Shown: positions 36,001 to 42,000 of the stretch, piece by piece | How positions within the stretch are numbered: the stretch's first letter is position 1 | How the letters are laid out: the number at the start of each line of letters is the position of its first letter | IMG/VR virus record: IMGVR_UViG_2897352509_000007 | Source of the DNA: a virus | Taxonomy: Duplodnaviria; Heunggongvirae; Uroviricota; Caudoviricetes | Direction: 5' to 3' (one strand) | DNA: 64,000 bases | Made by a program: the position numbers

Positions 36001-39000
36001 GGCGGCGTCGCCGTCAGACCTTGCTGATGCACTTGCGCAAAAAATTCGTGAAGGATGGCAACCATATGGTGGGCCGTTTTCTTCGTATACGGATGATGGC
36101 GCAGCACTTATTCAGGCGATTGTCGCAGAAGGTGATGTGAGCACACCTGTTGTGGTGAAGCCGACAGGTGGAGAAGGTGCAGTAATCAGCGCCACCAGCG
36201 ACCCCGGGTATTACTTTGTTGTGGTTCTGGCAGGGCAGTCAAACGGCATGTCGTATGGTGAAGGTCTTCCGCTGCCGGAGACATATGACCGTCCGGACCC
36301 GCGCATTAAGCAGCTGGCGCGTCGCAGTACGGTGACACCGGGCGGTGTCGCCTGTAAATATAACGACATCATTCCGGCGGACCATTGTCTGCATGATGTG
36401 CAGGACATGAGCCGCCTTAACCATCCGAAAGCGGACCTGTCAAAGGGGCAGTACGGAACCGTGGGGCAGGGGCTGCATATCGCCAAAAAATTGCTGCCGT
36501 TTATACCGGCGAATGCGGGCATTCTGCTGGTTCCGTGCTGTCGTGGTGGTTCAGCGTTCACCACCGGAGCTGATGGCACATACAGTGACGCGAGTGGTGC
36601 CTCGGAGAATTCAACCCGCTGGGGTGTGGACAAGCCGCTGTATAAGGACCTTATCGGTCGAACAAAAGCAGCACTGAAGAAGAATCCGAAAAATGTGCTG
36701 TTTGCCGTGGTGTGGATGCAGGGGGAATTTGATTTTGGCGGTACGCCGGCAAATCACGCAGCACAGTTTGGTGCGCTGGTTGATAAATTCCGTGCAGACC
36801 TGGCGGATATGGCAGGTCAGTGCGTCGGTGGCTCTGCTGGCGGTGTTCCCTGGATATGTGGAGATACGACGTATTTCTGGAAGCAGAAGAACGAATCCAC
36901 GTACCAGACGGTGTACGGCAGCTATAAAAACAAAACGGAAAAGAATATCCATTTCGTACCGTTCATGACCGATGAGAACGGGGTGAATGTGCCGACGAAC
37001 AAACCGGAAGAAGACCCGGACATTCCGGGTATCGGATATTACGGTTCGAAATGGCGTGACAGCTCAGCCACCTGGACGTCACAGGACAGGGCGAGCCATT
37101 TCAGTTCATGGGCTCGCCGCGGGATTATTTCCGACCGTCTGGCAACGGCGATTTTGCGCCATGCGGGAAGAGTGGCGCTAAACGCGGGGGCATCATCGAC
37201 AGTATCAGAGGTGCGCCCGTCATCGCCTTCCGGTGCAGAAGCCACAGGCGTCACAACACTGCTCTCTTACCTTGCCAGCGAGTCAGAGGGAAGCCTGAAA
37301 GTACAGGGATGGTCAGCCAGTGGCGGCAGGGCAGAAGTGGTCAGCGATGCGGAGGGAACCGGAGGTAAGGCAGTGAAGCTGACCAAGGAAGCCGGTAAAA
37401 GCAGCTGGGTGCTGGAGTACGCCGCGGGCAACGGTGCGGCTCTGTTACAGAAAGGGGGGCAGATTCGCTGCCGCTTTAAGGTTTCGGGAGCGCTGGCTGC
37501 GAACCAGTATGTTATGGCGTTTTACTGGCCGGTATCTTCACTGCCACAGGGCGTTGCCCTGACCGGAGACGGGGGGAATAACCTGCTGGCAGCGTTCTAC
37601 ATCCAGACAGATGCAAAAGACCTGAATGTGATGTACCACAATGCGAAAGTGGCGACAAACAACCTGAAACTGGGAACCTTTGGCGCATTTGATAACGAAT
37701 GGCATACGCTGGCTTTCCGCTTTGCCGGGAATAACAGCCTGCAGGTGACGCCGGTTATTGATGGTCAGGATGGCACACCGTTCACGCTGACGCAGTCACC
37801 GGTCAGTGCCTTTGCGGCGGATAAACTGCATGTGACAGACATTACCAGAGGTGCGACTTACCCGGTACTGATAGACAGCATTGCGGTGGAAGTGAACAGC
37901 ACAGACACTGCGGCATGATAAAAAAACCGCCAGCGACAGGAATGGACGCTGGCGGTGGTGATACCTATGGAGAAAAAATAAAGGAACGATACTTTCGTAC
38001 TCTGGTTTTTAATGAAAACAGTTCTTATTGTCAACAATAACGGAAAGAAATTATGACATTTCTGAACCAGTTAATGCTGTACTTCTGTACGGTGGTCTGT
38101 GTGCTGTATCTCCTTTCGGGTGGGTACAGGGCCATGCGTGACTTCTGGCGCAGACAGATTGACAAAAGGGCCGCTGAGAAAATCAGCGCCAGTCAGTCAG
38201 CCGGAAGCAAACCCGAAGAGCCGCTCATTTAGCGGCAACTTTCTTAATCACACCTTTCGACGAGAAAATCCCATGTCAGAAATTACATCCCTGGTCACTG
38301 CTGAAGCAGTGAAGGAAGTCCTGCGCTCTGAAGAAGTCCGGAGCGCACTGAAACAGAAACTTCGCCATAACCTGGAAGCGCGTCTTGATGCAGAAGTGGA
38401 TGCCATTCTGGATGAACTGCTGGGCGCACCGGCAGCTCCGGAGCCGGAAGGCATCGCGGGTGAGGGGAGTGCTTCAGACAGCGGTGACCCCACACCGGAC
38501 AGCGACATGATGATGTAAGCATGCGTCAGGGACCATCGGTGTGTGCCGGTGGTCTTTTTTATTGTTGTGAGCTTCCGGATTGCGGGAGGCGGGGTATGAA
38601 CCAGATGGAAAAAATCACAACAGGTGTGTCATACACCACGTCAGCGGTGGGAACGGGCTACTGGTTCCTGCAGTTGCTGGACAGGGTTTCCCCGTCTCAG
38701 TGGGCGGCAATAGGCGTGCTGGGGAGTCTGCTGTTTGGTCTGCTGACGTACCTGACGAACCTGTATTTCAAAATCAGAGAGGACAGGCGTAAGGCGGCAC
38801 GGGGAGAGTAGGTGATGAACCATGAAGAAATGAATCAGCGCTTCAGTCGTCTGGAAAATGAAATTGCTGAACTGAATAAAAAACTGTCGGCGCTGATGCC
38901 TTCTGAAGATGAAAAAAAACGCCGCGATGAGCAGTTTGCTGCGTTTGACGATTATTGTCGGAAAGTGATGAGCAGAAATCTCGCAGAGTGTTTCAGTATT

Positions 39001-42000
39001 CATAATGATAATTGCAGTGAGCTGGAATGGGAGTGTAACCGGCCATCCTTTGTTGTATCCGGTGATGACGGGAAAATCACCATATCAGAAAATGGAAAAG
39101 TAACACTGCCATCGCACCAGCACAGTGAGACGCTCATTGAATTTGCCATTGATTACCTGAAGAACAATAAAAAACAGGGGCTGATGCAGCGCATTGGTCG
39201 TTGCATGGGGTATCTGCAGGTAGCCGCTGAGATTGAAGCGCTGGCCAGTGGTGCTGATAAGGATGCAATTGTGCGGGAGGCTCTTCTTCGTAATTTTAAT
39301 ACTCCACCCTTTAAAAAAGTGCCGGCTTACTGGCTTCATCCCGGACTGACTTATCTGAAAGTGCGTATTTAGTGGGCCTGGGACAGCGGCTGAATATTTA
39401 ATATATCCATGAACACAAAAATCAAATACGGCCTGTCGGCTGCCGTTCTGGCGCTGATTGCCGCAGGTGCTTCTGCGCCTGAAATTCTCGACCAGTTTCT
39501 TGACGAAAAAGAAGGTAACCACACCACGGCATACCGTGATGGTGCGGGTATCTGGACCATCTGCCGTGGAGCCACCCGGGTGGATGGTAAGCCTGTTATT
39601 CCTGGCATGAAGCTGTCGAAGGGGAAATGCGACCGGGTTAACGCCATTGAGCGTGATAAGGCGCTGGCATGGGTGGAGAAAAACATCAAAGTGCCACTGA
39701 CTGAACCCCAGAAAGCGGGGATCGCGTCATTCTGCCCGTATAACATTGGCCCCGGTAAGTGTTTCCCGTCGACGTTTTATAAACGAATTAATGCAGGCGA
39801 CCGCAGGGGAGCGTGTGAAGCGATTCGCTGGTGGATTAAGGACGGAGGCAGAGACTGCCGTATCCGCTCAAATAATTGCTATGGTCAGGTATCCCGTCGT
39901 GACCAGGAGAGCGCGCTGGCGTGCTGGGGTATCGACAGATAAGCAGAATATTTTGCTGAAAAATGACGTTGGCCAACGCGGACGGATAACACGAAATCCT
40001 GCGAACTGGCAAAACCTGAGTGAATAAAAGTAAAAACCCCGTTTGTTAGCAGCAGGTGGGGTTTTGTGTTTCCTGACTCCGGAAAAGTCAAAGGAGAAAG
40101 TGTGTTTGATTTTAGCAAACTGATTCGGGAGATTTGAGTGATGGCTGAAAAATTATCTACCTGGAAGTTCATTCTTATCTGGCTGGTGTTTGTGATTATG
40201 GTCTCCGGTTATTTCATCGGTCAGATACGCTGGTGGTGAAATGAACCGCGTACTGTGTGTGGTCATCATTGCCCTGCTGGTGGCCTGTGGTGCGCTTAGT
40301 CTGGGGCTGAATCATTACCGTGATAACGCCATCACCTACAAAGCGCAGCGCGATAAAAAAGCCAGAGAGCTGGAGCTGGCAAACGCAACCATTACTGATA
40401 TGCAGGTGCGCCAGCGCGATGTTGCTGCGCTCGATGCAAAATACTCAAGGGAATTAGCTGATGCGAGAGCTGAAAATGAAACTCTGCGTGCTGATGTTGC
40501 CGCTGGTCGTAAGCGCCTGCGGATCAACGCCACCTGCTCCGGTACCGTGCGTGAAGCCACCGGCACCTCCGGCGTGGATAATGCAACCGGCCCCCGACTG
40601 GCAGACACCGCTGAACGGGATTATTTCATCCTCAGAGAACGGTTGATGACAATGCAGAAGCAGCTGGAAGGGGCACAGGACTATATCCGCACTCAGTGCC
40701 TGAACTAAGTTTTGCGGATGCGCCGTATCGTCGCTGTATTCCCTCATTAACAGAGACCGCAGCCCGACAGGGAGACTCCTCTGCGCGAGTGTGCGGGGAT
40801 AATCAAAAACGATACACACCGGGGTTTACCGCGTTAACGGAGCGCGGCGTTGTCCCCTCATAGTCGCTGGTCCGGTGCGATGGTGGAAGAAACCGGACTA
40901 CATTACAAATGATAACCATTATCATTTTGCGGGTCCTCCTGGTGGGGTGGGCCTGAACACGGGGCGGGCGGCGCGGAAAAAGGCGCATTTTTTGATTTTT
41001 ATGGCACCATCACCACCAGTGTAAGTTGTTGATATATAGAAAAATAAAAATTTTTAGTGTCGAATCTGGTTGTTTTTTGTTCATCACTGGTGTGTGTTTA
41101 CATAATTTTCAGGGGGAGTTATGGATCGTGAATTAAAAAATCTGCATCTGAATATTTCCCAACTGGCCGCATTATCCGGTGCTCATCGACAGACTGTTGC
41201 GGCTCGGGTAAAAAACATAAGCCCAGCCGGTGGTCATGAGAGCAATCTCAAACTGTACCGACTGACAGATATCCTTGCCGAGCTGATGAAAGCTCCTCTG
41301 CCTGTAGATAACGAGGAAATGGATCCTCATGCGCGTAAAGCATGGTACCAGTCAGAACGTGACCGACTGAAATTTGAGCAGGAAACTGGTCAGCTTGTGC
41401 CAGTCAGTGATGTCAGGCGGTCCTTTTCTGTCGTGGTGAAAGCGATAGTTCAGGTACTGGAAACCTGGCCTGACCGGCTGGAGAGGGACAGGGGGTGGAC
41501 CGCATCACAACTGAATGAAGTACAGATTGTGGTTGATGAGATCCGCGACACACTGGAAAAGGCAGTCATTGACTGTTGTGATGAGGCCGATATGTGAATC
41601 AGGTGAACGAGAGCCATAGCCGCGCATCCGATATCTGGCGCGAAGTGGCCTCGCTGTTTCGCCCACCCAGCCGGTTACCAGTAGCGGAAGCCATCAGGCG
41701 TTATATGCGGGTTCCACGGGGAGCCAATACTTCCGGTCCGTGGGAGTCATCGCTGACGCCCTATATGATTGACCCCATTAATACATTATCAGCCCGTGAA
41801 TATGACGCGGTGGTGTTTGTGGGACCTGCGCGAACCGGGAAAACCGAAGGGCTGATTGATGGCTGGATTGTGTACGGCATCATCTGTGATCCGGCGGATA
41901 TGCTGGTGGTGCAGATGACTGAGACGAAGGCGCGTGAGCATTCCAGAACGCGTCTTTCCAGGACGTTTCGCCACAGTCCGGAGGTCAGCAAGCGCCTCAG

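Follow-up and report, generated by a model that had tools for sequence, protein, structure and literature searches.

Cassettes that combine a P21-type pinholin with a signal-anchor-release (SAR) endolysin provide for lysis and toxin release in nearly all Shiga toxin (Stx) phages. The gene described here lies in a cassette of this kind, between the holin gene (S) and the endolysin gene (R), at positions 38815–39372 (+ strand) of virus record IMGVR_UViG_2897352509_000007 (64,000 nucleotides; "the window" below is this whole stretch). The window is 100% identical to DNA of E. coli O157:H7 EC4115, and the host element is a lambdoid prophage in which stx is absent between Q and the lysis genes. Classical morons of such phages carry a promoter and a terminator of their own. 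Among soluble proteins tied to lysis, RIII of phage T4 has the cytoplasmic part of the holin as its target, and the LydB gene of phage P1 lies beside the holin gene lydA. RIII has been described as cytoplasmic (PMC8385771) and linked to RNA metabolism via ribosomal protein S1 and RegB (PMC9409239), and LydB is named as an antiholin (PMC9025707). In the Qin cassette of E. coli K-12 the gene order is essQ-ydfR-rrrQ-rzpQ, and YdfR, 103 amino acids long, consists of an N-terminal DUF1327 domain (N-domain) only. Two-hybrid and pull-down experiments showed residues 1–72 of K-12 YdfR to interact with the catalytic half of RNase E; RNA co-purifies with the protein, which is not toxic when overproduced and then has hardly any effect on the transcriptome (PMC13232886). 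A literature search with the protein accessions and with essQ, rrrQ and ydfR found no other functional study, and the main text of the envelope screen paper does not mention ydfR.

By profile search the 185 amino acid protein encoded between S and R in the window belongs to the YdfR family. It matches phrog_1085 with an E value of 2e-111, residues 2–186 (of the 186 amino acid form described below) aligning with profile positions 117–296 of 296, and the first 116 positions, which represent the N-domain, being unmatched. Its closest longer relatives are E. coli "YdfR family" or "DUF1327 domain-containing" proteins of 287–333 amino acids, to which it is 83–95% identical over 84–98% of its length. 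These have an extra N-terminal DUF1327 domain, so that the 185 amino acid protein, which begins after the N-domain in the alignment, corresponds to their C-terminal two thirds, and their genes, too, lie between a P21-type holin gene and a lysozyme gene (L005–L008 of the related loci compared here). A Pfam scan did not find DUF1327 (PF07041, an N-terminal domain of ~90 amino acids) in the 185 or 186 amino acid protein, whereas the relative P0034 scores an E value of 9e-41. The slot proteins form a nested series of N-domain only (K-12 YdfR), N-domain plus coiled coil (the 169 amino acid protein of PhiR12_2), N-domain plus coiled coil plus C-terminal domain (C-domain), and coiled coil plus C-domain (the protein of the window); the 268 amino acid gp05 of Stx2 phage 86 has an N-domain and a C-domain. 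Judged from these alignments, the gene is a YdfR-family slot gene that has apparently lost its DUF1327 N-terminal domain, and what is new here is a better definition of the limits and modular structure of a known, uncharacterised, slot-resident family.

The start annotated in RefSeq (WP_001015158.1, "hypothetical protein") is the ATG at 38815, 3 nt past the S stop codon (TAG, 38809–38811). An alternative GTG at 38812, the nucleotide right after that stop, gives 186 amino acids; this is the form reported in a preliminary description of the window, which correctly had it begin directly after the holin gene and end 36 nt before R (its stop codon is 39370–39372 and the R start is the ATG at 39409). 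The same description had picked out three smaller open reading frames (ORFs) of 59 amino acids, 81 amino acids and 32 codons in the cassette, and all four are found where it placed them. These ORFs are genuine genes in the lysis cassette of a prophage. The ORF of the 185 amino acid gene is intact in 44 loci (44 sequences, 26 distinct alleles), with a pooled ratio of nonsynonymous to synonymous polymorphism (pN/pS) of 0.27; since this value, those of S and R (both 0.13, pooled over the related loci) and those of the two upstream genes (given below) are well below 1, all five genes are under purifying selection, which is weaker on the 185 amino acid gene and the two upstream accessory genes than on S and R. 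The N-terminus MNHEEMNQRF is the same in the 185 amino acid protein, in a 213 amino acid variant and in a truncated 161 amino acid chimera. The gene is foreign in composition, with a GC content of 0.45 (0.44 at third codon positions) against 0.55 (0.71) for S and 0.54 (0.58) for R. S and the 185 amino acid gene share a reading frame with the TAG between them, and a read-through fusion of the two was considered and rejected: the frame is not conserved, as L005 shows, where S ends in TAA and the YdfR-type gene begins 4 nt later.

The preliminary description was right that these are accessory positions, and the slot varies among related prophages. In Stx2_EH1846 it is empty, R starting 4 nt past the S stop, and the flanking genes share 99% (S) and 97% (R) identity with those of the window, so that comparison of the S–R spacing identifies the 185 amino acid gene as an insertion. 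In Stx2_12E129 the slot holds the 213 amino acid variant together with a gene on the opposite strand, in PhiR12_2 it also carries an antisense DUF1823 gene, and in the Stx2a phage Stx2_499 the slot gene is cut after ~62 codons by a different antisense ORF. The latter ORF (L002 2649–3350, - strand), of up to 233 amino acids, takes the place of two thirds of the slot gene at its 3' end and has no match in Pfam and PHROG searches; the truncated slot gene is annotated as a chimeric 161 amino acid "hypothetical protein", and L002 and L001 have in common a hairpin-containing region just upstream of R. Alleles with a 1-nt deletion occur in L049–L051. Among 5,426 complete E. coli genomes a query of S, the 185 amino acid gene and R matches at 12,349 places, and DNA related to the 185 amino acid gene is present at 1,214 places in 878 of the genomes; ~10% of the cassette sites have such DNA and ~90% lack it. 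The cassette is found in 462 phage records and a protein like the 185 amino acid one in 20. Several RefSeq genomes have no annotated feature under a match of 79% coverage (H79–H84 of the genome scan); the matched query range, 116–558, fits the DUF1327-fused form, and the gene may have been missed or dropped by annotation there. The presence of family members in the slot of Stx2 phage 86 (gp05) and PhiR12_2 is compatible with a working phage. In ~90 Escherichia loci the family gene always lies between S and R. The 185 amino acid gene is thus an optional insert exactly at the S–R junction that is dispensable for the cassette.

A consensus scan found no terminator between S, the 185 amino acid gene and R, and no promoter-like site on the + strand from 37800 to 41200. 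A GGAG inside the 3' end of S (38800–38815 region) serves R in insert-free cassettes and the 185 amino acid gene here, and the 36-nt spacer before R (39373–39408) is AT-rich and without a Shine-Dalgarno sequence. The inserted gene takes over the GGAG and leaves R without such a sequence, and endolysin translation should therefore change. Since the gene lacks its own promoter and terminator, starts immediately after S and uses the GGAG of S, co-production with the holin is expected; the protein would be made from the Q-dependent late transcript.

The protein is predicted to have two modules. Residues 1 to about 62–65 (38815–39009, + strand) are modelled by AlphaFold2 (AF2) as an acidic coiled-coil or helical hairpin module with helices at residues 3–27 and 31–64 (pLDDT 69–91 over residues 1–50); F10, L13, I17, L20, L24 and L27 occupy heptad positions, with a clean 3-4 pattern over residues 10–27. 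This module has an isoelectric point (pI) of 5.3 and is common to the proteins of N-domain plus coiled coil such as the 169 amino acid protein of PhiR12_2. Residues 76–185 (39040–39369, + strand; ~110 amino acids) form a basic C-domain (pI 9.3) with the motifs GRCMGYLQVAAEIE, NPPFK and W..PG..YLK.RI, which are retained in Salmonella-type relatives of only 29–42% identity. With a diverse alignment that took in such relatives, AF2 models the C-terminal 120 residues with a pLDDT of 89.7 and a pTM of 0.82, as a three-strand beta meander followed by four helices. A full-length AF2 model from a shallow, E. coli-only alignment was poor (pLDDT 55.5), only the N-terminal hairpin being confident, and was not used for the fold search.

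The preliminary description saw no lysis motif in the protein, and none of our searches found one: it has no transmembrane segment or long hydrophobic stretch, no signal peptide, a grand average of hydropathy of -0.60, no holin match in Pfam or PHROG that would indicate a holin or membrane antiholin, and no endolysin or spanin family in Pfam, PHROG or NCBIfam, R, Rz and Rz1 being present separately. A match to a lysis-cassette family, which that description took as the finding that would count against its view, does exist in so far as phrog_1085 resides in lysis cassettes, but that family has no known lysis function; nor did anything in this analysis tie the protein to control of lysis. Of the profile and structure searches it proposed, the former gave the phrog_1085 match and the latter none for the C-domain, which has no Pfam family and no fold match in the PDB or among the predicted viral structures of BFVD. 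Its term "unassigned" needs correction, in that DUF1378, DUF826, phrog_6632 and phrog_1085/YdfR are all named families, and stands for the 185 amino acid protein in Pfam, NCBIfam and PADLOC, where only noise was returned (Relaxase_C, E 0.048; DegQ and CdaM, E ~0.05). A sequence-profile search of the PDB with this protein gave nothing below an E value of 0.08, and PADLOC-DB 2.0 gave 0 families for it, DUF1378, DUF826, the small ORF before Rz, the 213 amino acid variant and the antisense partner of the latter.

More distant relatives came from an all-against-all profile search of 1.84 billion representatives; a scan of GTDB genomes with strict peptide patterns had found Escherichia and Shigella only. 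They are proteins of 250–340 amino acids from Salmonella enterica and other assemblies, 29–42% identical to the protein of the window, with an N-domain in which hhalign recognises homology to DUF1327 (probability 91.8%, E 7.5e-7). The Salmonella-type genes also adjoin cassettes of P21-type holin, lysozyme and Rz, but lie upstream of the holin gene, in the Q–S zone beside HicAB, and are uncoupled from S by an antisense gene and 170–530 bp.

The reading we rank first, with about an even chance of being correct, is that the 185 amino acid protein is a late-expressed cytoplasmic cargo protein and not a lysis effector. It is placed first because cassettes with and without the gene cannot be told apart by their S and R, the slot accommodates unrelated antisense genes as well, the relatives of Salmonella type have their place in the cargo zone, and the composition is foreign. 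The protein would then act in the cytoplasm by binding a partner, with the coiled coil driving self- or hetero-association and the C-domain recognising the target, and by analogy the pathway might, tentatively, be the one touched by the DUF1327-bearing relatives, that of RNase E and RNA. Several points weigh against the cargo interpretation. No function has been demonstrated for any module of the protein, and the role of the C-domain as a binding module is suggested by its size and conservation, without a fold or family match. The RNase E contact was mapped to residues 1–72 of K-12 YdfR (PMC13232886), a module that is missing here. The promoter and terminator of a classical moron are absent. 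Wherever the family was seen it adjoined a P21-type holin cassette, in Escherichia always between S and R, and a lysis-linked role would account for this too.

Such a lysis-linked role is the main rival, which we consider unlikely. By analogy with cytoplasmic antiholins, which are a known kind of protein (PMC8385771, PMC9025707), the protein could be a cytoplasmic modulator of lysis timing whose acidic coiled coil binds the pinholin at its short basic tail in the cytoplasm and delays or sharpens triggering. The charges are appropriate (the N-terminal module has its pI of 5.3 and the holin tail is basic), the gene is translationally coupled to S in an invariant position in Escherichia, a Phage_holin_2_1 holin and a phage lysozyme are encoded nearby in every Escherichia and Salmonella-type context seen, and the balance of S and R expression must change when the insertion strips R of its Shine-Dalgarno sequence. 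On the other hand, S and R are essentially identical in cassettes without the gene, which gives no sign of co-adaptation; ~90% of the cassette sites do without it; the protein has no similarity to lysis families in Pfam or PHROG; and the intervening antisense gene and 170–530 bp of the Salmonella-type loci separate the family gene from S.

A second rival rests on a conserved gene of ~105 codons (phrog_1853, with no Pfam family) that lies on the opposite strand, tail-to-tail with C-domain genes and 11–19 nt away from or overlapping them (L001 3072–3386, L101 2858–3172 and L094 4285–4602, - strand; also in L102, L103 and L105–L109). The two look like a gene pair: the arrangement is found with many of the distant relatives, in Stx2_12E129, Stx2 phage 86 (gp05/gp06), Salmonella loci and metagenomic contigs, it holds although the C-domain genes are only 30–40% identical, and it persists in degraded Salmonella prophages that lack holin and endolysin. 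The 185 amino acid gene might accordingly be read as the orphaned half of a two-gene module, toxin/neutraliser-like or used in competition between phages, of which only the late-strand gene survives in the window, where the phrog_1853 partner is absent. We regard this as distinctly unlikely. Only 64 of the 5,426 E. coli genomes contain the partner (at megablast sensitivity), whereas 878 have DNA of the 185 amino acid gene; solo copies are the rule, and purifying selection still acts on them. Neither protein has a PADLOC model, and a search for a sigma-70-like promoter of the partner found none. K-12 YdfR shows no toxicity when overproduced, but it has no C-domain.

That the gene is a decaying remnant, an N-terminally truncated YdfR-family gene left by recombination and hitch-hiking without function in the prophage, is very unlikely, for although the family-defining DUF1327 domain is missing, the family is a mosaic of truncations (the 161 amino acid chimera of Stx2_499, the 1-nt deletion alleles), a neighbouring 45-codon ORF has a nonsense codon and the prophage has lost or never had stx, the ORF is intact in its 44 loci and 26 alleles with a pN/pS of 0.27, has a clean start and a conserved N-terminus shared with the 213 amino acid variant and the chimera, and has a C-domain for which AF2 predicts a compact fold with confidence.

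For now the gene is one more uncharacterised accessory gene of an ordinary kind, and cargo in a lambdoid late operon will not surprise a specialist. What deserves note is an orphan C-domain that is faithful to pinholin cassettes and the displacement of the ribosome-binding site of the endolysin: about 1 in 10 cassette sites in complete E. coli genomes has a family gene in mid-cassette that takes over this site. Should the protein, or just its insertion, alter the timing of lysis or the ratio of S to R, this would have an effect on burst size and toxin release; should the cargo act on RNase E or RNA, it would be an additional late-expressed function of host manipulation. We think it doubtful that the C-domain is the working part of cytoplasmic regulators of a hitherto unrecognised class, confined to lysis by pinholin and SAR endolysin, or of a convergent phrog_1853 module that governs late host RNA metabolism or prophage competition; were either true, the gene of the window would be a version already minimised by nature, with which the function could be dissected.

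The order of genes on the + strand around the insert is nanS-p-like esterase, DUF1378, DUF826, S, the 185/186 amino acid gene, R, a small hydrophobic ORF, Rz/Rz1 and the small terminase subunit gene. S (38596–38811) encodes a P21-type (class II) pinholin of 71 amino acids with dual starts at Met1 and Met4 (Pfam Phage_holin_2_1, E 9e-33; "class II holin family protein" in RefSeq). R (39409–39942) encodes a SAR-type phage lysozyme of 177 amino acids (Pfam Phage_lysozyme, E 3e-24) whose N-terminal segment is hydrophobic and rich in glycine and alanine; from knowledge of R21 and P1 Lyz we take this segment to be the SAR domain. The i-spanin gene Rz (40241–40708; Pfam Phage_lysis, E 3e-50) contains the embedded o-spanin gene Rz1 (40461–40646; Pfam Rz1, E 2e-21). 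The consensus scan gave two terminator-like hairpins on the + strand, one with a T run after it between DUF826 and S (38528–38557) and one in the R–Rz spacer (40033–40065). This spacer has a low GC content (0.43) and is the site of an antirepressor gene in other O157 prophages. The nanS-p-like esterase gene (35972–37918, + strand) encodes SASA and DUF6645 domains, and Rfam matches to the small RNAs STnc100 (35569–35761, + strand; 144.5 bits) and anti-GcvB AgvB (35763–35824, - strand; 96.5 bits) and to a tRNA-like sequence (35424–35483, + strand) lie just upstream of it (35424–35824), which is the position of stx in Stx phages.

The two genes upstream of S are as previously outlined, a membrane peptide of 59 amino acids and an acidic protein of 81. 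The former (38053–38232, + strand; annotated in RefSeq) belongs to DUF1378 (Pfam PF07125, E 2e-39, 134 bits with a gathering score of 25, over profile positions 1–59 of 59; phrog_494) and is a predicted single-pass peptide with one N-terminal hydrophobic segment, a basic C-terminal tail, a pI of 9.2 and a pN/pS of 0.21 (18 alleles). The latter (38273–38518, + strand) belongs to DUF826 (Pfam PF05696, E 3e-40, 136.6 bits against a cut-off of 25; phrog_311), with a pI of 4.2 and a pN/pS of 0.24. A "139 amino acid" match to phrog_8301 across both was rejected as a fusion protein, being an over-long ORF call in the DUF826 frame (38099–38518). The 32-codon hydrophobic ORF reported between R and Rz (40141–40239) is real but is only the distal part of a conserved 45-codon ORF for a single-pass peptide of phrog_6632 (40102–40239, + strand) that starts with GTG at 40102, 5 nt after the Shine-Dalgarno sequence AAGGAG, and stops 1 nt before the Rz start; the phrog_6632 match (E 1.6e-19) covers only profile positions 13–45 of 45. 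Codon 12 is TGA in the window (40135–40137), as it is in 8 of the 22 other loci (9 of 23 sequences), and CGA in 14 of the 23; the TGA splits off the upstream 11 codons, and the distal 32–33 could possibly be translated by reinitiation at GTG 40138 or ATG 40141. In its own frame the small ORF has a pN/pS of 0.17, against 2.5 and 0.8 in the other frames, values that come from few substitutions and from pairs that are not independent. An unrelated hydrophobic ORF of 43 amino acids is at the same place before Rz in L005 (5815–5946), as in other lambdoid cassettes.

The 185 amino acid protein resembles T4 RIII and P1 LydB as soluble proteins tied to a lysis system, but the likeness is one of description, and its gene is absent from most otherwise identical cassettes. 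With the YdfR/DUF1327 slot proteins, a family of no established function, it shares the slot, the PHROG and the coiled-coil and C modules; they carry the DUF1327 N-domain that is reported to contact RNase E, it does not, and K-12 YdfR is the converse, with the N-domain only. In contrast to a classical moron the gene lacks a promoter and terminator and is translationally coupled to S, and only its deviant GC content fits that class. It compares well with the late-operon cargo of lambdoid prophages, such as ant between R and Rz, bor after Rz and stx or nanS-p between Q and S: like these it is inserted at a gene boundary, and it shares with such cargo a presence/absence polymorphism, a deviant GC content and, through its Salmonella-type relatives, a place in the Q–S zone.

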